Shown one piece after another: positions 2,663 to 44,864 of a DNA stretch of 46,656 bases; position 1 is the first letter of the stretch; each line of letters starts with the position of its first letter. Location of the stretch: contig CAUYUJ010000181.1 of the NCBI GenBank assembly GCA_963575745.1, positions 620,001-666,656 on the forward strand, in the 5' to 3' direction. Under the pieces are notes generated by a model. That model saw only the letters and a program-made list of their open reading frames with translations. It was not told where the DNA came from and did not search any database. The position numbers and the translations under genes are program-made. This stretch comes from Prorocentrum cordatum. Its lineage: Eukaryota.

Positions 2663-3964
2663 ATCCGCCGGCCCCCTTGTGGGGCCACCAGGCTGTAGGC
2701 CCGTGATTCGCAGTTTCCTGTACCAGTGGTAGCTTGTAGTTTCCAGTGTTACAGGTCTGCTTCTTGCTGGTTACTGTAACTAGTTGATTGACCGCGCGAG
2801 GGGGGGGGAGGCCCAAACGGGATTTTTAGCGTCTCATGGGCGCGTTGTCTGAATTGCTGGGGGGGCTCGAAATCGACACCCCTCACGCAGATCCGCGGGG
2901 TCAGGGTCCAAAAACACAGGGGATGTGCAACATTTCTGAAATTCGGTGCCACCCCTCACGCAGATCCGCGGGGTCAGGTCCAAAAACACATGGGATTTGC
3001 CACATTTCTGAAATTCGGTGCCACCCCTCACGCAGATCCGCGGGGTCAGGGTCCAAAAACATAGGGGATTTGCGACATTTCTGAAATTCGGTGCCACCGC
3101 TCACGCAGATCCACTGGGTTAGGGTCCAAAAACACAAGGGATTTGCCACATTTCTGAAATTCGGTGCCACCCCTCACGCAGATCCGCGGGGTTAGGGTCC
3201 AAAAACACAGGGGATTTGCCACATTTCTGAAATTCGGTGCCACCCCTCACGCAGATCCGCGGGGTCAGAGTCCAAAAACATATGGGGATTGCCACATTTC
3301 TGAAATTCGGTGCCACCCCTCACGCAGATCCGCGGGGTCAGGGTCCAAAAACACGAGGGATTTGCTACATTTATGGTTCCGTGCCACCCCTCACGCAGAT
3401 CCGCAGGGTCAGGGTCCAAAAACACGAGGGATTTGCTACATTTATGAAATTCGGCGCCACCCCTTACGCAGATCCGCGGGGTCAGGGTCCAAAAACACGA
3501 AGGATTTACTACATTTCTGAAATGCGGTGCCACCCCTCACGCAAATCCGCGGGGTCAGGGTCCAAAAACACAGGGGATGTGCCACATTTCTGAAATTCGG
3601 CGCCACCCCTTGCGCAGATCCGCGGGGTCAGGGTCCAAAAACACATGGGATTTGCCACATTTCTGAAATTCGGTGCCACCCTTCACGCACATCCATCGCA
3701 AGGCGTGGTAACCCAAACTGCGAGAACTCCCTCGGCCCTTTAATCGCAAGGTGTGGTAACCAAGCCCGTAAACCATACACGTCTTACCAATCGCCAGGTG
3801 TGGTAACCCCTCTTGTGATCAGTTGGTTTTGCTGATTGCGAATCGGCTTCGCATGAAGTTTCGATACTGCTTCACGACAGCGCCAAGGCCTCATGACTTA
3901 GCTCTTCCATGGCCCATTCTCCGAGAGAGGGGGCCGGCGGCAGGGGGCGAAGCCCTTACGGATA
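2663..3964 (+). mobile_element. Family H1 copy 1: non-coding element with asymmetric IRs, 3' hairpin and internal 73-bp array (Helentron/DINE-like)
   Basis: Starts ATCCGCCGGCCCCC and ends GGGGGCCGGCGG-CAGG-GGGCGAAGCCC-TTACGGATA. Both non-repetitive flanks (~210 bp left, ~120 bp right) are homologous to 16311-17169. Confidence 0.75.
2877..3690. repeat. 73-bp tandem array, ~11 units
   Basis: Unit CACCCCTCACGCAGATCCGCGGGGTCAGGGTCCAAAAACACAGGGGATTTGCCACATTTCTGAAATTCGGTGC; period 73 is also visible in ORF offsets 3046/3119/3192. Confidence 0.97.
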
Positions 3965-4907: not shown

Positions 4908-7305
4908 TTGGGTCGGGCATGTCCCCCTACAGGCGGATTTGGAAAAACAAAAAAAACAAAAACAAAAAATTATGAGAAAATAATCGATCAGGGTCAAAAA
5001 ATAATCAAAATATAGTCCCCGAACTATTTCCCGGCGGTGCCGGGTGAAATGCTGTGCCCGCCGGTGCGACTGACTGACTGACTCACTGACTGACTGAACG
5101 TCAGGAAGGCACTTCGGACAACACGTTTCAATTCGCCCGCGCGCAACCGCAACTGGGCGACACATTTCAGGCCGTAAGCGCGCGCTACCGCAACCGCAAC
5201 CGGGCGACACATGTCAACCTGCCCGCGCAACCGCAACCGCAACCGCAACCAAACGACACATTTCAACCCGCCCGCGCAACCGCAACCGCAACCGCAACTG
5301 GGAGACACATTTCAGCCCGCCCACGCGCGCAACAGCAACCGCAACCGGGCGACACATTTCAACCCGCCCGCGCAACCGCAACCGCAATCGCAACCGGGCG
5401 ACACATTTCAACCCGCCCGCGTAAACGCAACCGCAACCGCAACTGGGCGACACATGTCAACCCGCCCGCGCAACCGCAACCGCAACCGAAACTGAGACCG
5501 CCCTTGCGCGCAACCGCAACCGCAACCGGGCGACACATTTCAACCCGACATCGCAACCGCAACTGGGCGACACATGTCAACCCGCCCGCACGCGCAACCG
5601 CAACCACAACCAGACGACACATTTCAACCCGCCCGCGTAAACGCAACCGCAACCGCAACCAAGCGAAACATTCCAACCCGCCCGCGCGCGCAACCGCACC
5701 GCAACCGGGCGACACATGTCAACCCGCCGCGCAACCGCAACCGTAATCGCAACCAGACGACACATTTCAACCCGCCCGCGCAACCGCAAACGCAACCGCA
5801 ACTGGGCGACACATTTCAGCCGGCCCACGCGCGCAACCGCAACCGCAACCGGGCGACACATGTCAACCCGCCAGCGCAACCGCAACCGCAACCGCAACCG
5901 GGCGACACATTTCAACCCGCCCGGGCAACCGCAACCGCAATCGGAACCGGGCGACACATTTCAACCCGCCCGCGTAAACGCAACCGCAACCGCAACCGCA
6001 ACCGGGCGACACATTTCAACCCGCCCACGCGCGCAACAGCAACCGCAACAACACATGTCAACCCGCCAGCGCAACCGCAACCGCAACCGCAACCAAGCGA
6101 CACATTTCAACCCGCCCGCGCAACCGTAACCGCAACCGCAACAGGGCGACACATTTCAAACCGCACGCGCAACCGCAACCGCAACCGCAACTGGGCGACA
6201 CATTTCAACCCGCCCGCGCAACCGCAACCGCAACAAAAACTGGGCGACACATTTCAGACCTCCCGCGCGCGCAACCGCAACCGCAACCAAGCGACACATT
6301 TCAACCCAGCCGCGCAACCGCAACCGCAACCGCAACTGGGAGACACATTTCAAAACACCCGCGCGCGCAACCGCAACCGCAATCAGGCGACACATTTCAG
6401 CCCAACCGCGCAACCGCAACCGCATCCATATAGCACAATTCAACCCGCGCGCACAACCGCAACCGCAACCAAGCGACACATTTCAACCCAGCCGCGCAAC
6501 CGCAACCGCAACCGGGCGGCGCAAATCAACCCGCCCGCGCAACCGCAACCGCAACCGCAACCGGGCGACACATGTCAACCCGCCCGCGCAACCGCAACCG
6601 CAACCGCAACTGGTCGACACATTTCACCTCGGGTACACACACGTCATGGTTCACCTTGCTCTCGTGTGCACATTTCTCTTTTCGTTGTTCGCTCACCTGC
6701 GGTCCTCCTGCAGAGGATCTGAAGAGGAAGGAGGGTGGGATGGAGGAGGGATGGCGGGAGGAGGGAGGGAGGAGGGAGGGAGGGCGGGGGGGAGCAGGGA
6801 GGGGAGGAGGGAGGGAGGAGGGAGGGAGGAGGGAGGGAGGAGGGAGGGAGGAGGCAGGGAGGGGATGAGGGAGGGAGGGAGGATCACGAGGAAGAGGAGG
6901 AGGAGGGGGAGGAGGAGGGAGAGGAAGAGGAGGACGAGAGACAGCGGGAAGAGAGGATTGGGCAGGATGGCCAGGAGGAGGAGGAGGACCACGACGACGA
7001 CGACGACGATGGGGAGGGGGATGCGGCGGTGGTCGTGTTCCAGAGGGTTGTAGGAGCAGGCGCCGATGGAGGAGGGGACCCGATGGCTCGATAGGAATAT
7101 AGAGGGCCAGGAGGTTGCGACGGAGGAGGGGGATGCCGATGAGGAGGACGAGGGGGAGGAGGAGGGCGAGGAGGAGGAGGACGAGGACGCGGCTCTCCGC
7201 CGGGACATTGCAGCGGGGGATCCCCATTCCACGCTGCTGCCTCGGATTTTTGACTACGTAGTTTTGGATACGTATTCCTCCTGTAGAGGGACATGCCCGA
7301 CTTAA
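4908..7305. mobile_element. Pair of TIRs of the same MITE family, 2.4 kb apart, enclosing the CAACCG array
   Basis: Left TTGGGTCGGGCATGTCCCCCTACAGG (4908); right CCTGTAGAGGGACATGCCCGACTTAA (to 7305); no clean TSD. Confidence 0.55.
5120..6627. repeat. Compound minisatellite: GGGCGACACATTTCAACCCGCCCGCG plus (CAACCG)2-4, ~39-51-bp units
   Basis: Roughly 30 units; a constant core with a variable hexamer count. Confidence 0.95.
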
Positions 7306-16310: not shown

Positions 16311-17169
16311 TATCCGCCGGCCCCCTTGTGGGGCCACCAGGCTGTAGGCCGAAGGTTCGCAGTTTCCTGCACCAGTTGCAGCTTCCAGTTTCCACTGTTA
16401 CAGTTCTGCTTCTTGCTGCTTACCGTTCCTTGTTGATGGACCGCGCGAGGGGGAGGAGGCCCCAACGGGCAGGTTTAGCACGCCCTGAGCGTGTGCTCTG
16501 AGTTGCTGGGGTGGGTAAAAATTTGACACCCCTCACGCAGATCGGCGGGGTCAGGGTCCAAAAACATATGGGATTTGCAACATGTCTGACATTCGGTGGC
16601 ACCCCTCACGCAGGTCGGCAGGGTCAGGGTCCAAAAACAAATGGGATTTGCCACATGTTTGGAATTTGCTGGCGCCCCTCACGCAGATCGGCGGGGTCAG
16701 GGTCCAAAAACGCAGGGGATTTGCTGCATTTCTGACATCTGGTGGCACCCCTCACTCAGATCGGCGGGGTCAGGGTCCAAAAACACATGGGATTGGCTAC
16801 ATTTCTGAAATTCGGTGGCACCCCTCATGCAAATCGGCGGGGTCAGGGTCCAAAAACACATAGGATTTGCAACATGTTGTAAATTCTGGGGCACCCCTCA
16901 CGCACTTCCGCGCGGTCAGGACACAAGAGACTTCCAACATTTTCGAATTCGGGGAGAAGATTTGGGCACAGCATACGGGATCAAATAGAATACAACAGCG
17001 AATACAGCAAAAGCCTGGCAATCTCCATTCGTCTTGCCAATTACCTATCGTCTTCGCATGAAGTTCCGACGCTGCTTCACGGTGAAGCCAAAGCCTCATG
17101 ACTTCGCTCTTCCATGGCCCATTCTCCGAGAGAGGGGGCCGGCGGCAGGGGGCGAAGCCCTTACGGATA
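16311..17169 (+). mobile_element. Family H1 copy 2 with ~5 units of the 73-bp repeat (16527-16905)
   Basis: AAAAA|TATCCGCCGGCCCCCTTGTGGGGCCACCAGGCTGTAGGCC ... CCATGGCCCATTCTCCGAGAGAGGGGGCCGGCGGCAGGGGGCGAAGCCCTTACGGATA|AA, matching the ends of copy 1. Confidence 0.75.
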
Positions 17170-18510
17170 AACTACCCCGTCGCCCAGATGCGTCTGACAG
17201 CTAACTTTCGGGCTCGTCTAGGGGTATTCTTCCTCATGCGAGTTTCGACTACGTTTTTGAACGCGCCCCAGGATCAACTTTTGGACGCTGCTGGGCCCAG
17301 CTTGGGGCCCGAGGCGGAGCCCAGACCGGCCCCGAACCGCCCCCGTTTTTGATGCCATGCGGACGGGGCTGCGGCCCAGCGAGGATGTGCTCTCGCGTGG
17401 GCCGCCCGGAGTCTCCACCGCGGCCGCCTCGTGCCCTCCTTGGGCGCCCTTTTGGGGGCCCTGCTCGGGGCCTCTTCGGCCCTCGTGGGCGCCTTTCGGG
17501 CCGCTCTCGGGCCGTGTTACGGCTGTTCTCGTGCAGCGTTTTGGCTGTCGCTGACCTCCTGCAATACGGGCTACAGAGAGCCAACGGCCATACCACTGAT
17601 CCGTGGTAACGATGACGGGTCGATGACGAATGGATGAATGCAACATCGATCCGCCACACGGCCCACTTGAGCCCGATCTGTTATGGAATGGAGGAGAGAT
17701 GGAGCAAAGAAAACAATACAAAACACACACTTTGGGGAATCTGCCACTACTTTCGGAATATATTCACCAAGTCTTGGCGCCGTCTGCGCCTCTTCCGGCG
17801 AGAACTGGAATGAGTGGGCGGTGAATGCCTCCCCCCCAGGGGACCTCTGCGAGCAGTTCGGGAACAGCTTGCGACCCTCTGGAGCCAGCTTGGTCTGCAG
17901 GGGCGATATTCGAGGCGGGGCATCTCGGAGTGTATTCCTACAGCCTCTAGTAGCCCATGTTGCCATCTTATCTTTGACACCAGTCAAAAGATTTGGAGGA
18001 TCGAGAGGCCAAGGTGACGCCTGGGATATCACGGAGGTGGACTCACCCCCAATTTGGAATTCGAGCCCCCGCTTTTTTGCCTTGCATGTCCTTGTCCGCG
18101 TAGATCTCCTTTCTTACAGGTAGAGAGTGTACCCAAAGGGACGAGACATAAGTATAGATATACATCAAGAGAGAGAGAGAGGGCGAAAAAGAAAGAAAGA
18201 AATAAACATAGAAAGAGAAAGAGAGAGAGAGAGAGGTAAAATCACAACAAACAAATAGCGATACAATGTTTGTACGCAGAGGGGGGTCCTGGAGGGGGGT
18301 CCCGGTGGAGGTCCCGTCGGTGGTGGGGGAGGGTGGCCTCGGGCCAGAATGCCCCCCCCCCGTGGTCCAGGCGGGCCCCTGGGGGGGGAGCGCCAGCAGC
18401 GGTCCCCGGGGGAAGTCCTGTCTTCGGGATCTGTTGCACAGGCCGTCAGGCAGTGGTCGATAATGTGGGATGACGATTAAAGAAAAAAAGGAGGGGGGAA
18501 CGATTGAAAA

Positions 18511-19609
18511 CATGATGGACCCACGAACCCGGAAAGGGATATAGACATGTGGAGCATGGACACGTTTTCACGATACCCAACTGGGCAACACCTCACGAAA
18601 CATCCCACGAGACACTTCACGAAACATCCCACGAGACACCTCACGAAACATTCCACGAGACACCTCACGAAACATTCCACGAGACACCCCGCGAAACATT
18701 CCACGAGACACCCCACGAAACATTCCACGACGACAGGCAACCACTCAACCAAGGCGGTGTGGTCGTGCTGGGGAGTGGTCGTGCTGGGGTGTGGTCGTGC
18801 TGGGGGGTGGTCGTGCTGGGGGGTGGTCGTGCTGGGGGGGTGGTCGTGCTGGGGGGTGGTCGTGCTGGGGCGTGGTCGTGCTGGGGCGTGGTCGTGCTGG
18901 GGCGTGGTCGTGCTGGGGTGTGGTCGTGCTGTGGTGAGGTCGTGCTGGGGTGTGGTCGTGCTGGGGTGTGGTCTTGCTGGGGTGGGGTCGTGCTTGGGTG
19001 GGGTCGTGCTGGGGTGTGGTCGTGCTGGGGTGTGGTCGTGCTGGGGTGTGGTCGTGCTAGGGTGGGGTCGTGCTGGGGTGGGGTCGTGCTGGGGTGTGGT
19101 CGTGCTGGGGTGTGGTCGTGCTGGGGTGTGGTCGTGCTGGGGCGTGGTCGTGCTGGGGTGGGGTCGTGCTGGGGTGGGGTCGTGCTTGGGTGTGGTCGTG
19201 CTTGGGTGGTCCGCACCATGTGATTTATCGATCGGGTCGTGCTGGGGTGTGGTCGTGCTGGTGCTGGGGTGTGGTCGTGCTGGGGTGTGGTCGTGCTGGG
19301 GTGTGGTCGTGCTGGGGTGTGGTCGTGCTGGGGTGTGGTCATGCTGGGGCGTGGTCGTGCTGGGCGTGGTCGTGCTGGGGTGTGGTCATGCTGGGGGTGT
19401 GGTCGTGCTGAGGTGTCCCGCACCCTGTGATTTATCGATCGGGATTTCAAAAACAAGCGTTTCGCCTGAGACATCCTCAAATTTTAATCCGCCGGCCTCC
19501 TTCGACCTCGATATTAATCAGGGAAAGAATCCGCCGGCCTCCTTCAAGTTGGGCACCGGGGACATTTTTACATAGAAAAAGAGAACCCTGGGCCCGCGCC
19601 CTTTCCGGG
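18511..19609. mobile_element. Family H2 copy 1: element carrying a 24-bp array (18590-18730) and a 16-17-bp GGGGTGTGGTCGTGCT array (18757-19410)
   Basis: GAAAA|CATGATGGACCCACGAA-CCCGGAAAGGG (18528-18538) ... GAACCCTGGGC-CCGC-GCCCTTTCCGGG|AAAA. The left ~40 bp and right ~165 bp are homologous to 24817-26307. Confidence 0.75.
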
Positions 19610-20422
19610 AAAATAGTTTCCCCCACCGGGGGGGAACGCTCAGAAGCAGGGCTCGCCTGTGCGGTGTTTCGTTACCGGGGGGGGCGCGCGCCCGAGGACG
19701 GCGGGGGGGGACAATTAGAAAAATAGTTTCCCAGCCCGGGGCAGGTTTTTTCTTATCATCATCCCGGGCGCCGCCGCGTGAACACGACCCCCGGTCATTT
19801 TTTAATCATCATCCTCCATTACCCGGGGGGGGGTAGCGGTAATTTCAAGCGCATACCACAAGCTTGGCCCAAACAAAATTCAAAACAACAAGTTGACCCA
19901 AAAAACCCTCACGCCAAAGCGAAAGCGGATTTCCGTTTTAGTGGCCTTCCCTGCCCCTTCTGGGACCAATCCTACAGACGACCCAGCTCTCTGACCCCCA
20001 GACAAACCCAACCGGTAACCCTTAAGCGGGGTACAACATATCGGGATGTCGGTGCGCTTCGATCGCCGTTGCATGCGCGCGAGCACCAGCGTGCGGGACG
20101 GGGTCCGGTGCCCCCCCTTACGTGCAATCGCCATCGTTGCCCGGGGGCGGCGGGCCCTGATAACGACCGTTACGCGCCAGAGGATACGAAATCAGAGCGG
20201 GGGGGCCGAACGGCCATTCACTGTCACTGGGTACGTGGCTGAACTCAGCTTCCTCGTCGAGGATTCTGTTTGTTTACTGTTGTTTAAATCTCAGTTCTTA
20301 ATAATCCCTCCAGTGCCCATTGTTTTTTCCATGGAGTGCCCCTCCTGGGTCTCGAGCCATGAACTTTTCAATGGGGAATCCTGACGCTCAGGCTGGGCCC
20401 CTGGCACCCGAACTATAATAAT

Positions 20423-20503
<81 letters not shown>

Positions 20504-21814
20504 AACGACAACGACAATGACAACGACAACAACAACAAACTCTCCCGTCTGATACTCTCACGGCTTATTGAAAACCGCGCTCTCGCTCGAGAACTCCATG
20601 CAATTTATCTTGGAATCGCGCTCTCGCGCGGGCTCCCTCTCAATTCCGTGAAACGTCGCGCCCTCGACACTTAGGAATCACGCTCTCACACTGGACTTCC
20701 TCACGATTGACTTGGGAAGCGCGCTATCGCTCGAGACTTCCTCGCGATTCATGCAAGACTAATGCTTCAACGACCCGCCAGCTCGACCGGGCCGTTAGGG
20801 TCCGCCCGCCCGACCCGCCCGTCGGGTTTTGCTGCTTGCTTCTGACTCCTATCCCGCACCTGCGAATCTCTCGTGTTCTTTCCTTCTCCTTCCCCCCTTT
20901 CCCTCCCCTCCTTACTCCCGTCCAGTTTTAGAGGGCGTGCCAAGTACACGTGGCAATTGAGGAAGATATATACCCTCTGAGGGGGGTACCCCAGGCGGGT
21001 ACGATCGAAGACGGAGAGTGCGGGTATCGAGGGTTTGGGATATGAATGCTCAAGAACACGCAGACAGATACGAGCAGTTTTGAAATGATTATCGTTGTTG
21101 TTTGTTGTGTGTTGAATCTTCACTTCTAGAAGAAGAAGAAGAAGAAGACGGTATTCTCCCCCTCTCTGGTGCCCAGTGTGTTTTTCAATTGATGTGCCAC
21201 TCTCGGGGTTCGCATCCTGTTGTTTACCAAGAAAAGTCTTGAGGCTAAGAATGTGGCGCTGGCATTCGGTCGCGCTCGCGCATGGGACTTCCGCACCATG
21301 AGCGCAAGAATCGCGTCCTCGCATTAGGCGTCCTCGAAATTGATTGAAACGCCGCGCCCTCGACACTTAGGAATCACGCTGTCGTTTGGGACTTTCTCAG
21401 GATTTACTTGGGAATCGCGCTGTCGCTCGAGACTTCCTCGCGATTCATGCAGGAATCATGCTCCACCAACCCGACCGCTGGACCAGCCGTCTGAGCCCGC
21501 CCGACCGACCCGCCCGTCTAGGTTTGCCGCTTGTTTCCTGCTCCAAACTCCCCTCCTGCGAATCTCTCTCGTGCTTCATCCCTCCTCCCTGTCCTTCACC
21601 CCATCCATCCCTTCCAGATTTAAGGGATGCGGTAAGGAAAATCGCCCTGGAGGGGGGGGCAAGATCTAAGACGAAGAGGGCGGGTATCGAGGGTTCGGGA
21701 CATACCTGATGAGTGGCACGCGAGCAGTCGAGAACGAACAGTTTAAAATGCGTTGTGTTTGTTCATGTTCTTGATGATGGTGTTGTTGTCGTCATTATCT
21801 TCGCTCTCGACCCA

Positions 21815-22545
21815 GCCCGCGACACACACACGCGACCCACCCCGCGACCCACCCCGCGACCCACCCGGGACCCACCCGCGACCCACCCGCGACCTACCCT
21901 GCGACTTACCCGCGACCCACCCCGCGACACACCCGCGACCCACCCGCGACCCATCCTGCGACCCACCCCCCGACCCGGCGGCGTCGTTGTCGTCAATGTC
22001 GTCGTCGTCGTCGTGTTCGTCGTCGTCGTCGTGTTCGTCGTCGTCGTCTTCGTCGTCTTCGTCATTTTCGTCGTCGTCGTCGTTTTCGTCGTCGTGGTCG
22101 TCGTCGTCGTCGAGGGCGTCGTCGAGGGCGTCGTCGACGGCGTCGAGGACGACGACGACGAAAACCGGGAGAGATTTGCAGCGCGCCCGGCCGCGCCCTC
22201 GGCGCGCCCCTCGAGCGCTTCGAGCTGGGACGCCTGGCAGGTGAAGCCGGACAGGTCCCTGGACGACGCCTTGGGCAAGGAGGGGCCGAAGGAGGGAGGA
22301 GGAGGGAGGAGGGAGGAGGGAGAAGGAGGAGGAGGAGGAGGAGGAGGAGGAGAAGGAGGAGGAGGAGGAGGAGGAGGAGAAGGAGGAGGAGGAGGAGGAG
22401 GGAGGAGGAGGAGGAGGAGGAGGAGGGGGAGGAGGAGAGGAGGAGGAGGAGGGGAGGAGGAGGAGGAGGAAGAGGAGGAGGAGAAGGAGGAGAAGAGGAG
22501 GAGAAGAGGAGGAAGAGGAAGAAGAGGAGGAGGAGGAGGAGGAGG
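21815..22545. repeat. (CGCGACCCACC)n, then (GTC)n, then (GGA)n tracts
   Basis: The same 11-bp repeat occurs inverted at 23385-23570. Confidence 0.9.
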
Positions 22546-24029
22546 ACGCGACGCGCAGCGCCTTGGGCAAAGATGGAGGCGATGCGCAGAACAAAACGGG
22601 TAAGGCTTCGGGTTGCCTCTTTGTTGTCGTTAAACTCTCATTTTTGGAGGAAACATTAGATCTCCACCAGTGCACGCTGCTTTTCCAATTGGAAAGCCTC
22701 CTTGGGGCTCGCAGCCTGTTCTCTACCGAGGAACAAAAATCTTCTTGCTCAAACTGTGCCCCTGGCCCCCTGGCTACAACAACAACAATGGCTCCCGCCT
22801 GATACTTCCTCACAGTTGACCTGAGAATCGCGCTCTCGCGCGGAACTTCCTCACAATGTATGCAGGAATCGCGCTGCTGCATGGGACGCCCTCCCAATTT
22901 ATTCAAACGCCGCGCCATCGACACTTAGGAATCACGCTTTCGCTTTGGCTTTCGCAGGATTTACTTGGGAATCGCGCTGTCGCTCGAGACTTCATGCAGG
23001 AAACACGCTTCAGCAACCAGCCTGCTCGAGCTGGCCACCTGGGCCGCCTTCCCGACCCGCCCGTTAGGGTCTGCCCGCCCGATCTGCCCGTACGGCTCTA
23101 CCACGTTGTTTCTGCTCCTAGCCCCCCTCCTGCGAAGTCTCTCGTGTTCCATCCCTTTTGCCTCCCCCTTCCATTCTCTCTTCCCTTGCTTTAGGGGCTG
23201 CACAATGAAGGAAAGTGCACGTGGAAAATAAGGAAGATACACCGACAAGCGGGTACGATCGAAGACGAAGAGGGCGGGCATCGAGAGTCTGGGATATGCG
23301 TGTCGAATGGCACGCAAGAAGGTCAGAGCGAACAGTCTAATGCAGCACCCCGCAATTGCGAATGACAATGAGTGGGCGGGCGCGGGGTGGGTCGCGGGTG
23401 GGTCGCGGGTGGGTCGCGGGTGGGTCGCGCGTGGGTCGCGCGTGGGTCGCGGGTGGGTCGCGGGGTGGGTCGCGGGTTGGTCGCTGATAGGTCGTGGGAG
23501 GGTCACGGGTGGGTCGCGGGCGGGTCGCAATGTGGGTCGCGGGGTGGGTCGCGGGATGGCGCGGGTGGGTTGCGGGCGGGCCGCGGACGAGGACGACGAC
23601 AACAACGAAACAACGCAACGCAACAACAACCAGCACCGTGGAAGCCCACTTTCAGCCACGCACCCAGGGACAGTGAAAGCCAGCTCGGCCCAACCACTCT
23701 GAAATGTATTGTTGATGTTGCTGTTGTTGTTGTAGTTGTTGCTGCTGTTGCTGCTGCTGATGTGATTGTTGCTGCTGATGTTGATAGTGTAATTGTTCAC
23801 GTTGTTATTGTTGTTGTTGATGTTGTTGTTGCGTTGTTGTTGTCGTCTTCGTCGTCGTTGCTGTTCGAAGAAACGGAGACACTGGCCCGAACTTGTTGTT
23901 GAGTGTTTCTTCTTGTTGGAGAACCGAATATTTACCCTTCAGGGTCAGCAGAGCTCCAGCAAACGCGGGCTTGCCCCACGGGGCCGGAGGTGTTGGCACT
24001 GAGTCGGCGGTGTCAGGGGCTTCCATGGG

Positions 24030-24541: not shown

Positions 24542-24816
24542 CCTTCTTGGCCCCATTGCTGCCCGTCCTTTCTCCCTCGTCTTCCTGTCTGAGGGGCTGC
24601 GCGAATGGCACATGTCAGGCAAAGAATATAGTCCCCTTAAAGGGGTACAGTCGAAGATGAAGAGGGCGGGCCACGAGGTTGTGGAACATGCATTTTGAGA
24701 GGCACGCACGCATGTAAGAGCGAACAGTCTTAGAATTAGTGTTGCTGTTGGCCTCGCTCTTCTAAAGAAAAGCTGTTGTTGATCCCCCCTCCAGTGACCA
24801 TTGTGCTCTGTTGAAA

Positions 24817-26307
24817 CATGATCGACCCACGAACCCGGAAAGGAATATAGAACTGTAACACATGGCAGCGTTTTCAAAGACACCTGATTGGGTGACGGGC
24901 AAATGCAATGCTGAGTGTATCGATCTTGATGTACCCTGCCGAGGGCTGTGCTGTGCTGCGCCGTGCTGAATTGCGATGTGCCATGGCGCGACTGTGCTCT
25001 ATAGCCTCGTGGATCGAGTCCTCCTTTGCATCCGAGTCCTGACCGAACTGATCTGGATCTTAAGCTCGAGCTGCCTGAACACATAGTAGCTGCCCCAGAG
25101 CTAATGGACAGGGGAACATGCCAGGAGGACGCGCCGCGAAACGTCCCAAGGGATGCGCCAGGCGACGTGCCAGGGGACGTGCCATGGGGTCGCACCGCGG
25201 GACGTGCCAAGGGGACGCGCTACGGAACGTGCCAATGGATGTGCCACGGGATGTGTCAGGGGACGCGCCACGCGACGTGCCAGGGGGACTCGCCAAAGGA
25301 CGCCCCACGGAACGTGCCAAGGAACGTGCCAAGTTGCAATGCTGAGTGTATCGACCTTGATGTACCGTGCCGAAATCAGTGCTGTGCTGCGCCGTGCTGA
25401 ATTGCGATGTGCCATGGCGCGATTGTGCTCTATAGCCTCGTGGATCGAGTCCTCCTTTGCATCCGAGTCCTGACCGAACTGATCTGGATCTTAAGCTCGA
25501 GCTGCCTGAACACATAGTAGCTGCCCCAGAGCTAATGGACAGGGGAACATGCCAGGAGGACGCGACGCAGAACGTCTCAAGGGACGCGCCAAGCGACGTG
25601 CCAAGGGACGTGCCATGGGGACGCACCGCGGGACGTGCCAAGGGGACGCGCTACGGAACGTGCTGGGGACAAGCGTTTCGCTCGAGACATCCTGTCAAAA
25701 TCATCTGAATTCCTACGCGCGGGACGCTGCACGCGCGAGACATCCTCGGAATTCCTGCGAGCGGGACGTGATAACAAGCATTTCGCCTGAGACATCCTTT
25801 GAATTCTGGCCCCCCACAAGGCCACCGCTCGAGACATCCTCCAATTTTGCAAAACCAGCGTTTCGCTCGAGACATCCTCTACAAATTATGAAAAACAAGC
25901 GTTTCGCTCGAGACATCCTGTCAAAATCCAAAGAAATCGAAATACCCGAGCGCGGGACGCGGCACGCGCAAGACATCCTCAGAATTCCTGCGCGAGGGGC
26001 GCTTTTCCGTGTCGCGGTCGGCTCTGCAAAACCAGCGTGTCGCTCGAGACATCCTCAACAAATTCTGAAACCAAGCGTTTCGCTCGAGACATCCCCAACT
26101 CTGCAAAACCAGCGTCTCGCTCGAGACATCCTCAACAAATTCTGAAAAACAAGCGTTTCGCTAGGGACATCCTCAAATTTTAATTCGCCGGCCCTCTTCC
26201 CACTTGTTATTTATCGCAAAAGAAATTCGCCAGCCCTCTTCCCGTCAAACCCGGGGGGAAACCATCTAAAAGATAAAAGAGAACCCTGGGCTTATGCCCT
26301 TTCCGGG
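24817..26307. mobile_element. Family H2 copy 2: same ends, different cargo (431-bp duplication, GACGTGCCA repeats, GCGTTTCGCTCGAGACATCCT repeats)
   Basis: GAAA|CATGATCGACCCACGAACCCGGAAAGG ... GAACCCTGGGC-TTAT-GCCCTTTCCGGG|AAAA. It interrupts a host repeat unit whose uninterrupted paralog is at 26920-27000. Confidence 0.8.
24905..25662. repeat. Tandem duplication with 431-bp period
   Basis: 24905-25235 is nearly identical to 25336-25662 (ORFs at 25026 and 25457 share their first ~60 aa). Confidence 0.95.
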
Positions 26308-28039
26308 AAAAGGTGCTCTTCCCGGTGCTCGCACCCTGTTTTTACGAAGGCAAGTGAGATGTCACCTAAGCGGCCCCATGGCCCCCGAGTTCCTAAAAAA
26401 ACTCGCGCGGGTCGCGCTCTCGCGTGAGACATCCTCCGATTTACTCAGACGCCACGCCCTCGACACTTAGGAATCACGCTTTCGCCATGGCTTTTCTCAT
26501 GACTTACTTGGAAATCGCGCTGTCGGTCGAAACTTCGTCGCGATTCATGCAGGATGCACTCTTCAGCAACCCGCCTGCTCGACCTGGCCGTCTGGGCCTT
26601 CCTTACCGACCTGCCCGTCAGGTTCTACCCGTCCGATCTGCTTATCTGGTTTTGCCAGATGCTTTCTGCTCCTAGACCCACTTTTGCTACTCCCTCTCGT
26701 GCTCCATCCATCCTCCTCCGTCCTCTCTTTTCCTGCCTCAGGGGCTGCACGGAATGCACGCTGCAGGTTAAAAAGATATACCCCCTAAGGGGGTAAGATC
26801 AGGGGGCGGGTATCGAGGGTTGGGGATACACGTGTTGAGTGGCACGCGAGCAGATAAGAGCGAACAGTATTACAATAATTGCTGTTGTTGACTTCTCCTT
26901 CCTAAAGAAAACTGTTTCTGATCCCCCCTCCAGTGACCGCTGTGTTCTGTTTTACAAAATGTTATTCCCGGTGCTCGCACCCTGTTTTTTAAAAGGGCAA
27001 GTGAGGTGACACCTAAACGGCCCCCTGGCCCCCGAGTTACGGAAATAACGCGCGCGGGACTTCCTTACAATGTACGCAGAAATCGCGCTCTAGCGTGAGA
27101 CTTCCTCGCAATTTACTCAGACGCCGCGCCCTCGACACTCAGGAATCACGCTTTCGCTTTGGCTTTTCTCATGATTTACTTGGGAATCGCGCTGTCGTGG
27201 GTCTACCCGCCCGATCTGACCATCTGGTTCTGCCACGTGCTTTCTGCTCCTGGCCCCCCTCCTGCTACTCCCTCTCGTGCTCCATCCTCCTCCCTCCCCC
27301 TTGTCCCTTCCTTCCATCCGTCCTCTCTTCCCCTGCCTCAGGGGCTGCACGAAATACACGCTGCAGGTAAGAAATATAGAACTCACCCCCAAGGGGTGCG
27401 ATCGAAGACGAAGAGGGCGGGTATCGCCGGTTGGGGACACGCGTAGCAGATAAGAGCGAACGAGATTAAACTGATTGGTGTTGCTATTGTGGTTGCAACT
27501 GCTGTTGTGGTTGAATTGTTGTTGCGGTTGTTGTTGTGGTTGCTCTTCTTGCTGTTGTTGCTGCCGCTGTTGTCGTCGCCCCACTCGCGACCCGGCCCGC
27601 GACCCACCCCGCCGGGTGGCCCCAGACAGTCTCCGCTGCAGGCAGCCCCGGACAGCCTCTGGCGCCGCCCCCCTGAGGAGCTCCGCGCGTCCAGGGCGGG
27701 GGCGCGAACGCCGCCCCGGACTGTCCCGGGGGGGCCCGTGGAGGCCAGCCGGGACCACCGCGGGGGGCAGCCCAAAGGCTGACCGGACAGAGCACCTGCA
27801 CACACGCCGCAACCTCTTGAGGGAACGCGATGCACCGTCGCCAGCCTCAGACAATTCGGTCAGGGGGGGTCTCGGAAAGCGAAGGGCCCCTCCGTCCTGA
27901 ACAAAACCTGCAGTGGGTTCCTCAGAAAGCGGGGACCGCCCCCCTCCCCCCCTGCCTACCTACCCCCGCCCCCCAAGAACTGGGAGGTCCGGACACCCTC
28001 CCCCGCGCAAGGGGAGGTGGGAAGAAATGAACCTCCCGC

Positions 28040-41652: not shown

Positions 41653-41691
41653 AGTGGAGGCCAGTCCACAAGAAACCTCCCACAAAAAAAA

Positions 41692-43016
41692 TTAGCCTGG
41701 CGAAGGACCCAACCATATGCAGTTGTGAATATTGCAAATATGAATATCGTTTTCGGTGGCGCTACCTCTGGGTAGGGGAGACGCATGCGAATACCCCCAC
41801 TGGGGCCTTCGGTGGAGCTCCCTATGGGGCTACGAAACGCTGCCCTGGGTGGGGGAACCGCATGCGGGCACCCCCACTGGGGCCTTCGGTGGAGCTCCCT
41901 ATGGGGCCACGAAACGCTGCCCTGGGTGGGGGAACCGCATGCGAACACCCCAACTGGGGCCTTCGGTGGAGCTCCCTATGGGGCTACGAAACGCTGCCCT
42001 GTGGTGGGGGGAACCGCATGCGGCAGCCCCCACTGGGGCCTACGGTGGAGCTCCCTATGGGGCCACGAAACGCTGCCCTGGGTGGGGGAACCGCATGTGG
42101 ACACCCCCACTGGGGCCTTCGGTGGAGCTCCCTAGGGGGCTCCAAACTGGGTGGGGGATGGGGACTGGGGCCTTCGGTGGAGCTCCTATGGGCTACGAAA
42201 CGCTGCCCTGGGTGGGGGAACCGCATGTGGACACCCCCACTGGGCCTTCGGTGGAGCTCCCTATGGGGCTACGAAACGCTGCCCTGGGTGGGGGAACCGC
42301 ATGCGGACACCCCCACTGGGGCCTTCGGTGGAGCTCCCTATGGGGCCACGAAACGCTGCCCTGGGTGGGGGAACCGCATGTGGACACCCCCACTGGGGCC
42401 TTCGGTGGAGCTCCCTATGGGGCTACGAAACGCTGCCCTGGGTGGGGGAACCGCATGCGGACACCCCCACTGGGGCCTTCGGTGGAGCTCCCTATGGGGC
42501 CACGAAACGCTGCCCTGGGTGGGGGAACCGCATGTGGACACCCCCACTGGGGCCTTCGGTGGAGCTCCCTATGGGGCTACGAAACGCTGCCCTGGGTGGG
42601 GGAACCGCATGCGGACACCCCCACTGGGGCCTTCGGTGGAGCTCCCTATGGGGCCACGAAACGCTGCCCTGGGTGGGGGAACCGCATGCGGACACCCCCA
42701 CTGGGGCCTACGGTGGAGCTCCCTATGGGGCTACGAAACGCTGCCCTGGGTGGGGGAACCGCATGTGGACACCCCCACTGGGGCCTTCGGTGGAGCTCCC
42801 TATGGGGCTACGAAACGCTGCCCTGGGTGGGGGAACCGCATGTGGACACCCCCACTGGGGCCTTCGGTGGAGCTCCCTATGGGGCTACGAAACGCGTGAG
42901 AGGTGTGCCGAGAGCAGAGGCAAGGAGGGGGAGGAGGGAGGAGGGGGAGGAGGAAGGAGAGGAACGCGGGGCACCGTCTCTTCAAAACGAGGACCCAACA
43001 CCACAGGATGGTTGGG
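41692..43016. mobile_element. Family H3: element carrying the 77-bp array
   Basis: An A8 run, then 16 bp, then CCCAACCAT (41708-41716), which is inverted with ATGGTTGGG (43008-43016). Terminal hairpin CCCAACACCACAGGATGGTTGGG is followed by AACAAAA. Single copy in this window. Confidence 0.55.
41768..42894. repeat. 77-bp tandem array, ~14 units
   Basis: Unit CTGGGTGGGGGAACCGCATG(C/T)GGACACCCCCACTGGGGCCTTCGGTGGAGCTCCCTATGGGG(C)(C/T)ACGAAACGCTGCC; one disrupted unit near 42135-42165. Confidence 0.97.
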
Positions 43017-43050
43017 AACAAAACCCTGAGACCCCAGGACGGCCATTGAT

Positions 43051-43410
43051 GACTGGTGTGGGAGCGTCCACCGAACCCAAGAGACCCAGGGCCCCCCGGA
43101 GGCAGGCAGAGTGTTTCTTGGCATGATGGCGCTGGCCCCCGCTGTACAGTCGGGGGCTTGACCTAAGGAACCCAAAATAAGGAACGAGGCCCCTTTTTTC
43201 CATAAGTCAAACTTCGACTTCCGATCGGAAACAGAAGGGAACCCGGAGGCAAGCTGGGAAACACTCAAGGAACGCGGAGCCCCTCCCCAACGAAAAGGGT
43301 TCCTTCTTCAGGGCCCCGACTGTACTGGTGTGGGAACGTCCATCGAACCCAAGAAACCCAGGGCCCCCGGGAGGCAAGCAGAGTGTTTCTTGGCAGGATG
43401 GCGCTGGCCC
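43051..43410. repeat. ~90-bp direct duplication (43051-43139 and 43324-43411)
   Basis: ACTGGTGTGGGA.CGTCCA.CGAACCCAAGA.ACCCAGGGCCCCC.GGAGGCA.GCAGAGTGTTTCTTGGCA.GATGGCGCTGGCCCC. Confidence 0.9.
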
Positions 43411-44864
43411 CGCAGGGGCCTCGGGGCGTGTTGGCGTGTTGTCCACCACCACCACCAGAAGTTGGAGGGGGGGGTCCTCCTCCTCCTCCTCCTCCTCCTC
43501 CTCCTCCTCCTCCTCCTCCTCCTCCTCCTTCTCCTGCTCCTCCTCCTCCCCCTCCTCTTCCTCCTCCTCCCTGGAAGCTCGTCTGGGCTCCTGGCAGGGT
43601 CTCGGCTACAGCTCGCTGCAGCGGCCGGCGCGCGGAGGCCTCCGAGCCCGCGCGTCTGGCGGCCCCCCCCCCCCGCCCTCGCTGGCAAGCGGGCCGCGTG
43701 CACGACCACGGCTCCCGCCGCGAGCGGGGCCGAGGCATTCCATGGGGGGCACAGGGAATGCCAGTGGGCGCAGACCTGCTGTGAGTAAGCTCGAGTGCAG
43801 GAGATCCTGGGGCACACCGTTCTGTCGAAAAATCGGGTGTCGTGGGGAACCCACAAACTTATATACACGAGAGCGGCTTTCGCAGGCAGCCGGGCCGAAG
43901 TGAAGCTCAAAGGTAGCACTACATTACGGCAGACGAGAGAAGCCGAGAGAGAAAGCGAGAGAAAGAGAGAGAGAGAGAGACCATCCAACCTCCACCCACA
44001 TATTTGTTTCAGCAACAACACTTCGACTGCTGACTGCCCGACCAGATCCAAGCCAGTGACACTGAGACGCTACTGCATCATACGCCGGGATTACTGGCCT
44101 CGGCTAAATAAACGGCGCGCTCCCCACCCCGACACCCCCTCTCCCTCCCCCGCCCCTGCCCCCTTTCCTCTGTCTAACAAGGCATCCATGCGCTTGTGAA
44201 AGTATGTGTGTGTGTGTGTCATGGAGTCGAATCGTCAAATTTGTCGGAGATGCCAGCTAAGAAACGCAACGGAAGGAGGAGGAGGAGGAGGAGGAGGAGG
44301 AGGAGGAGGAGGAGGAGGCGGAGGAGGAGGAGGAGGAGGAGGAGGAGAGGAGGAGTGGAGGAGGAGGAGGAGGAGGAGGAGGCAGGAGGAGGAGTGGGAG
44401 GAGTGGAGGAGGAGGAGGAGGAGGCACCCCCCACCCAAAGACGACGAGACGATCCTCTGCTCCACAAGGGCGTCTTGGATGCGCACGCCCGCGAGCGCGC
44501 CGCGGGTGCCTCCGGGGCCCTTTCCGCCTGCGCGCCCTCGGACTCCAGCCAGGACACGGCGGATCCCCTGGGCGCGGGTGGCGCTGGGGCTGTTTTGTTG
44601 AGGGGTGTGGGGGGGGGGGGCGGACGGGAGCTCCGCTGGCTGGCAGTACGGTAGGCAGCTACAGCACCGGGAACCTTGCTGTCAGAAATCCTGGGGCACA
44701 CTACCCGCGGACATCTGAGGGCCCACAGGTGCCCCAGAGTTTCTGCGGGTCCCTGGGGCCATCGAGGGATAAGACGTTCTCGCGAGGCACCTACTGGCAG
44801 GCCGATTTCTGATTTGAATTGCGAACTGTAGAGCATGCGTGCAAGCGATCAGGCAAGCACGCGA

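Follow-up and report, generated by a model that had tools for sequence, protein, structure and literature searches.

The stretch of DNA analysed here, hereafter the window, comprises 46,656 nucleotides of Prorocentrum cordatum (C181:620001-666656) in an assembly of 4.15 Gb and 22,724 contigs. At 41692-43018 on the minus strand it contains H3, a non-coding element of 1,327 bp, probably of Helitron2/HINE type, the boundaries of which are sharp in 22/30 loci and at empty sites. Read from 43018 to 41692, H3 consists of a terminal TT, the inverted repeat CCCAACCAT, a TCC-rich spacer, approximately 15 units of 77 bp, a 36-nt module, the inverted repeat ATGGTTGGG and a 16-nt tail, which is followed by a host T-run. 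The features that the initial annotation had placed at the ends, namely the A-run, 16 bp, motif, hairpin and inverse motif, were all confirmed in the sequence, with plus-strand matches to CCCAACCAT at 41708, to AGGACCCAAC at 41704 and 42990 and to ATGGTTGGG at 43008. However, because H3 reads on the minus strand, the hairpin regarded there as the right terminus is the 5' end.

Based on this orientation, the minus strand of H3 begins with the TT (43017-43018; AA on the plus strand), which belongs to the element. The 5' subterminal inverted repeat CCCAACCAT (43008-43016) forms the outer arm of the 5' hairpin and pairs with GTTGGG 11 nt inward, in the inner arm at 42990-42999, which is a direct repeat of 41704-41713. 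The stem CCCAAC/GTTGGG has an extension, and the first 50 nt of the 5' end fold with approximately -5.6 kcal/mol. The spacer (42896-42989) is a (TCC/GGA)-rich, microsatellite-like tract. The central tandem array (41753-42895) comprises one shortened unit, approximately 14 units of 77 bp, of which some have deletions, and a partial unit; TRF reports it as 41760-42141 and 42164-42895, with 16 unit starts. Beyond the array lie the 3' unique module or leader (41717-41752, 36 nt), which has several variants among subfamilies, the 3' subterminal inverted repeat ATGGTTGGG (41708-41716) and the 3' tail (41692-41707). The inverted repeats are a perfect 9-bp pair, with the 5' copy 2 nt from its end and the 3' copy starting 25 nt from the other end. 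The stem-loop of the tail (CCT/AGG, 41696-41706) is weak, with 3 bp and -1.6 kcal/mol, and reaches 4 bp in one variant. The element thus starts with TTCCC and ends with CTAA at a T^T site, and the target is a run of eight A of host DNA at 41684-41691 (a T-run on the element strand). H3 itself sits within another repeat, an empty paralogue of which is present in L298 (88% identical at the H3 site and differing within the A-run). Additionally, an 88-bp direct duplication (93%) is located just to the right of H3, at 43052-43139 and 43324-43411.

Other arrays of the window have similar ends. H2 (18510-19611, minus strand) belongs to the same class and to another family, with the repeat CCCGGAAAGGG, and carries 24-bp and 16-bp arrays. 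Its motif lies at 18528, 17 bp after an A-run, and the inverse motif lies at 19599; both ends are present in 19/30 H2 loci, and the ends of the remaining 11/30 are out of range. H2b, a second copy of the H2 family (24816-26309, minus strand), carries 12-bp and 41-bp repeats as cargo and has an empty-site-like paralogue in the window. A third family surrounds the first 73-bp array (2664-3964, plus strand) with a perfect 13-bp asymmetric inverted repeat, a 5' hairpin and, by eye, a 3' GGGC-GAA-GCCC stem-loop, and its second copy surrounds the other 73-bp array (16313-17169, plus strand). H3 and H2 had been described as conserved in structure without sequence identity. The shared grammar of the ends stands, whereas their sequences are partly alike, since both start with TTCCC and have GGGT in two places, the inner arm of the hairpin and the 3' repeat.

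A relaxed scan of the window for this grammar returned H3, H2, the second H2-family copy and one chance-like match, and six matches were obtained in 20 shuffles. The strict scanner overlooked H2 and the relaxed scanner overlooked the 73-bp family, so negative results of the scanners are weak. The proposal that many minisatellites of this genome are cargo of such elements is borne out locally by five window arrays that lie inside such ends (the 77-, 16/24- and 12/41-bp arrays and both 73-bp arrays), as well as by 86-99-bp variants and a 101-bp unit elsewhere. The relaxed scan did not catch the 83-, 21-, 122- and 11-bp window arrays (a weak negative), and for the 49-bp array (5028-6626) a 5'-type end but no 3' repeat was found in the window. 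Upstream of the 49-bp array, a TT-CCCGGC hairpin-GGGT sequence and a (GACT)n microsatellite form a DINE-1-like 5' module. Two 11-bp arrays in opposite orientation (21808-21976 and 23385-23586) have similar upstream sequence and are probably another element family; the 11-bp repeat also occurs in C18, C1489 and C603.

H3 copies across the genome

The 5'-palindrome pattern of H3 has 16,884 matches in the genome and the exact 3'-end pattern has 8,292, compared with 0 in both reversed controls, which disposes of the concern that such ends might arise by chance. The strand counts of these patterns are balanced, and the copies are dispersed. At approximately 1.3 kb per copy, these numbers of ends correspond to an estimated load of 11-22 Mb, or 0.3-0.5% of the assembly, and one of the commonest dispersed satellites of the genome is thus explained as transposon cargo. 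A 22-mer of the unit has 144,094 matches (control 0), approximately 8.5 per 5' end versus 11 exact matches in the window copy, a ratio that, although rough, suggests that large arrays outside the element are scarce.

A search with the 99-nt left end of H3 yielded 1,285 candidates, and 36 of the 40 scored were identical over all 99 nt. When 30 loci were picked by the leader, both ends were in range in 22, with lengths of 974-1,575 nt, 9-18 units and unrelated flanks, so the boundaries drawn for the window copy recur in other copies of the 77-bp array. In five of the other eight loci the array runs on to the edge of the locus, and the remaining three are interrupted or decayed. A sample picked by the unit, consisting of every unit cluster among the first 100 matches listed (C1, first 3.26 Mb), contained 29 loci; with a fuzzy pattern, 18 had both ends, seven had one end and four had none. 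By eye, the ends of two of these four are decayed; in a third, other sequence cuts the cluster, and the fourth consists of one unit. Among the unit-picked loci, one contains two complete elements and another contains a second cluster without ends. The expectation that other arrays share the ends of H3 is therefore correct for most of this sample, while the leader in its literal form (41692-41767) is not universal: it has at least three variants, and it is the terminal modules that are common to the copies.

The unit length also varies among copies (77, 86, 89-90 and 99 bp). Furthermore, H3-like 5' ends hold an older 89-bp unit in L012 and an unrelated 101-bp unit in L106. Judging from the shortened first unit and the 89-bp relative, the array may have grown inside the element. 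H3 is a real, well-bounded and very abundant mobile element with fixed ends. Beside these features, copies were observed head-to-tail or abutting each other's A-rich ends (L002, L003, L018, L038 and L044), as were H2 copies in L100, L103, L121 and L122. Abutment across families occurs in L106 and L112, where an H4-type end lies beside H2; no 3' repeat matching the H4-type 5' end was found in the loci examined.

Candidate autonomous elements and candidate mobilizers of H3

DUF6570 has been proposed as a marker of HLE2 elements (accessible text of PMC11417382). A search of the genome for this domain gave 1,156 candidates, and 150/150 scored above the cut-off. Two families, AUTO-1 and AUTO-2, have the predicted layout of autonomous HLE2 elements, with a Rep and a PIF1 helicase and DUF6570 upstream. 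AUTO-1 is approximately 21.2 kb long, and its one ORF, which reaches 6,383 aa, encodes DUF6570 (Pfam 6e-19), Rep (Helitron_like_N, 7e-11), PIF1 (5e-13) and a C-terminal UCH domain (2e-19). Both ends are present in two of five copies and the 3' end in all five; the 5' end is TT-CCCGGATAGC in a hairpin, and the 3' end consists of GCTATCCGGG and a tail of 17-18 nt, with a 3' stem of 4 bp. The AUTO-1 repeat equals the H2 repeat at 8/9 first bases. All five copies (L221-L240; C16338, C1693, C1090, C14887 and C15172) lie among satellite-like repeats, and three of them are without the 5' end and have kept the 3' end.

AUTO-2 has 203 motif matches and measures 11.2 and 15.3 kb in two copies. Its DUF6570 match is above the Pfam cut-off (6e-10), and its Helitron_like_N and PIF1 matches (both 1e-4) are below it. 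A search with the Rep protein of AUTO-2 returned 1,332 candidates, and the 150 scored all belong to its own family with at least 91% identity, a depth at which rarer families are not visible. The ends of AUTO-2 are TT-ACCTAACAGCG with an inner complementary arm at the 5' side and CGCTGTTAGGT with a 16-nt tail at the 3' side, where no clear stem-loop was found. Immediately inward of its 5' end, AUTO-2 also contains a GAG tract and a 73-bp array of its own. Compared ungapped and at equal length, the tails of AUTO-2 and H3 are identical at 12/16 positions (P ~9e-5 for a single post hoc comparison), versus 7/16 for AUTO-1 and H3. AUTO-2 shares tail bases and spacing with H3, not the inverted repeat. 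H2, AUTO-1 and AUTO-2 likewise have a 5' hairpin that uses the 5' repeat, although its sequence differs.

The Rep motifs of AUTO-1 and AUTO-2 are ESQGRGGIHPH and EAQGRGF[TA]HGH, and the published RG(S/L)PHxH motif is absent from both. No AP endonuclease family appeared in the Pfam scans of the parts of AUTO-1 and AUTO-2 submitted. Protein searches with the two families returned 23 and 33 matches, mostly unnamed metagenome proteins with a few eukaryote entries and no named HLE2 reference proteins. One homolog, P0042 (36% identical), has a gene prefix like those of Symbiodiniaceae, in line with a host that is probably a dinoflagellate. AUTO-1 and AUTO-2 are two intact, high-copy candidate transposase families.

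These families lend support to the earlier suggestion that H3 and H2 share a mobilizing enzyme class, since both are DUF6570-Rep-PIF1 elements with the same end grammar; their action on H3 is what we infer. H3 is very likely a non-autonomous, array-carrying rolling-circle transposon of Helitron2 type (HLE2) that is moved in trans by a DUF6570-Rep-PIF1 transposase. The best candidate mobilizer would be AUTO-2 or an unsampled relative. That AUTO-2 itself moves H3 is a plausible but tentative proposal, suggested by the likeness of the tails. With the H3/AUTO-2 and H2/AUTO-1 pairs, it can be tested directly whether HLE2 transposases recognize the structure or the sequence of the ends. In a broader and rather doubtful scenario, a marine-protist branch of HLE2, with the Rep motif E[AST]QGRG[GF]xHxH and ORFs of up to 6,383 aa, would read the shape and spacing of the ends together with some bases, namely TT-CCC...GGGT and a tail of 16-18 nt, and not the sequence of the inverted repeats. 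One or two enzymes could then cross-mobilize numerous short families whose repeats are unrelated, and these families would be the chief origin of the dispersed minisatellites of the 4-Gb genome.

It is improbable that H3 uses the same rolling-circle chemistry with another HUH enzyme, for example a divergent Rep-helicase of the RGTPH type, a canonical HLE1 element, or a Rep that is IS200/605-like or has no helicase. Such enzymes are present, with at least 150 canonical PF14214 loci and 165 RGTPH motif matches in the genome, and the exact parent of H3 was not found. No autonomous element with H3's own repeat occurred in 20 PF14214-guided stretches, 10 RGTPH regions, five AUTO-1 and five AUTO-2 regions and one 33-kb interval; these searches saturate on the commonest families, so that absence of an H3 parent is not implied. 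Against another HUH enzyme, the canonical Helitrons of the 20 PF14214-guided stretches have the HLE1 motif and no ends in common with H3 or H2, and the HLE1 ends TC...CTRR at A^T, as given in the accessible text of PMC11417382, are absent from H3. The RGTPH Rep-helicases were also rejected as the parent, since none of the 10 regions examined (20 kb each) contained an H3 or H2 end and Pfam gave no DUF6570. Among the autonomous candidates examined, the end grammar was seen only in the DUF6570 families.

Four further associations of ends and Rep genes were rejected. The H3 copy beside an RGTPH Rep-helicase in L164 is an ordinary insertion. A Rep ORF at C14183 lies 4 kb from an H2 end, but this ORF bears the canonical RGLPH motif, and the H2 copies at that site are short and complete in themselves. 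A 90-bp H3-related array seemed to be cargo of the AUTO-2 copy on C15; the AUTO-2 3' end precedes the array, which is thus a neighbor. Finally, two orphan H3 ends on C1, one 5' and one 3', are separated by 30 kb and were considered as one large element, and neither Rep nor helicase lies between them.

Several other sequences were observed during this search. The RGTPH family (motif EYQGRGTPHWH; G000 C1489:58982-64483 in L185 and L186, and C12658 in L179 and L180) has Helitron_like_N and PIF1 matches below the Pfam cut-off, is without DUF6570 and is not matched by BLASTP to AUTO-1, to AUTO-2 or to a canonical HLE1 from this genome; it could be a separate Helitron-like clade. In the C4102 region (L177 and L178), the 3' portion of an RGTPH element is duplicated in inverted orientation over approximately 5 kb (99%), through either a rearrangement or an assembly artefact. 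A further Rep-helicase group (L136-L140) has the motif RVIEYQxRGLPHAH and the helicase motif GRAGxGKST, with N-terminal Stc1 domains in some members. The interval C1:1108598-1109251 (L333) contains a 105-bp tandem repeat that we take to resemble pentatricopeptide-repeat coding sequence.

Insertion sites and proposed mechanism

On the plus strand, the left junction of 34 unique full copies is preceded by A in 33/34 and by AA in 31/34. At the right junction, 43/44 ends continue with AA. The table behind this count omits loci L031-L060, which came from a right-end search that is biased toward 'AACAA' flanks because its query contained window flank; these loci are included in the 34 unique copies. 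Empty-site matches were found for 5/44 unique copies, one exact at the junction and four 80-88% identical with junction differences. In L015, an empty 73-bp satellite unit is restored exactly, without duplication, when both A's are counted as element. Based on these junctions, the A's at 43017-43018, previously assigned to the flank, are part of H3. A fixed-length target duplication was not found at the H3 junctions and empty sites examined.

These sites bear on a MITE-like origin, in which a DDE transposase would cut and paste an element with subterminal inverted repeats into A-rich targets. The inverted repeats near both ends, the small size and the high copy number agree with it, as do direct repeats flanking two copies (12 bp in L050 and ~34 bp in L014, at L014:1500); these may stem from older tandem repeats or from rare, variable duplications, possibly like those of Chlamydomonas CRe elements. 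However, H3 has neither the terminal inverted repeats nor the fixed-length duplication of MITEs; its repeats are placed asymmetrically, at 2 nt from one end and 16 nt from the other, copies occur in head-to-tail arrays (L002, L003 and L018), and the autonomous elements of the same grammar encode a Rep-helicase. The empty site in L015 largely refutes this origin, which is very improbable. Least probable of all is a retroposed SINE-like sequence with an A-rich tail or a recombination-spread satellite with co-amplified flanks, which the A-rich sequence after the right end and the arrays with one end or none might suggest, but which is disfavored by ends sharp to the base, short and variable A-runs on both sides without target duplication, the same ends around different unit lengths, related ends around an unrelated unit, and the balanced and dispersed copies.

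For H3 as an HLE2 element, the published Helitron model suggests that the HUH Rep domain would nick at the 5' TT and hairpin and that the Pif1-like helicase would displace one strand. The 3' repeat and tail would mark the end point, and the displaced strand would be joined into a T-run. Bao and Jurka suggested that the two repeats pair, opening the 5' hairpin (accessible text of PMC3627910). Everything between the ends, including the array, would be copied as a passenger, and the number and length of units would drift within copies.

Comparison with published systems

As described in the available part of PMC3627910, Helitron2 elements have asymmetric inverted repeats of 8-15 bp, at a distance of 0-2 bp from the end on the 5' side and of approximately 20-30 bp on the 3' side. 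H3 has short asymmetric repeats at these distances, a 5' hairpin that uses the 5' repeat, and a T^T(C) insertion site without target duplication. According to the same text, non-autonomous Helitron2 elements such as Helitron-1N1_CRe of Chlamydomonas similarly have short asymmetric repeats, the 5' one folded into a 5' hairpin, and a 5' T; Helitron2 of Chlamydomonas also inserts after a T-run without duplication, with rare copies that have flanking duplications. Unlike Helitron-1N1_CRe, H3 has a weak 3' hairpin and a long central tandem array, and its sequence and host are unrelated. The 5' TC, the 3' hairpin with CTRR and the A^T site of canonical Helitrons (HLE1) were not found as the ends of H3.

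H3 also has the structure of the HINE/DINE-1 non-autonomous Helentrons of Drosophila and mite, which are described in the accessible text of Thomas et al. 2014 (PMC4067079) with a 5' subTIR, an inverted repeat 3-22 bp away, a microsatellite, central repeats and a 3' subTIR with a stem-loop, at a TT target without site modification. However, the subTIR of H3 is shorter (9 bp versus 12-15 bp in that text) and its 3' palindrome is weak; a repeat of 9 bp is below the 11-15 bp of HINEs and within the 8-15 bp of Helitron2. Helentrons sensu stricto have an AP endonuclease and the S in RG(S)PHxH, whereas AUTO-1 and AUTO-2 are without AP endonuclease in the Pfam scans and without the S of RGSPH. In view of these differences of AUTO-1 and AUTO-2 and of the weak 3' hairpin of H3, we file H3 as an HLE2/Helitron2-type element and not as a Helentron.

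Cg_HINE elements of the Pacific oyster, as far as presented in the available part of Vojvoda Zeljko et al. 2020 (PMC7492417), resemble H3 in their dispersed, short satellite-like arrays between two terminal modules, and resemble its class in having related ends with unrelated monomers, a T-rich target and no duplication. Their monomers measure 140-180 bp versus 77-101 bp here, and the host here is a protist. A literature search, with most subscription journals outside its reach, did not turn up any paper in which HLE2 elements of dinoflagellates carry satellites. The class is known; the spread of small satellites by such elements has been described in flies and oysters, and publications on the mechanism itself cover flies, mites, oysters and Chlamydomonas. 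The addition here is modest and consists of the autonomous candidates and the unusual Rep motif, and the mechanism is now extended to a giant protist genome, which is useful for repeat annotation. Helitron variants are summarized, and a third clade is added, in the accessible text of PMC13085455. A Helitron2-like Rep-helicase of Symbiodinium microadriaticum branches outside Helitron2 and Helentron in the available part of Heringer and Kuhn 2021 (PMC8788227), in which non-autonomous carriers of satellites are not mentioned. This element is like AUTO-1 and AUTO-2 in that it is on the HLE2 side, is described there without an AP endonuclease and comes from a dinoflagellate, and AUTO-1 and AUTO-2 may be near its protein.
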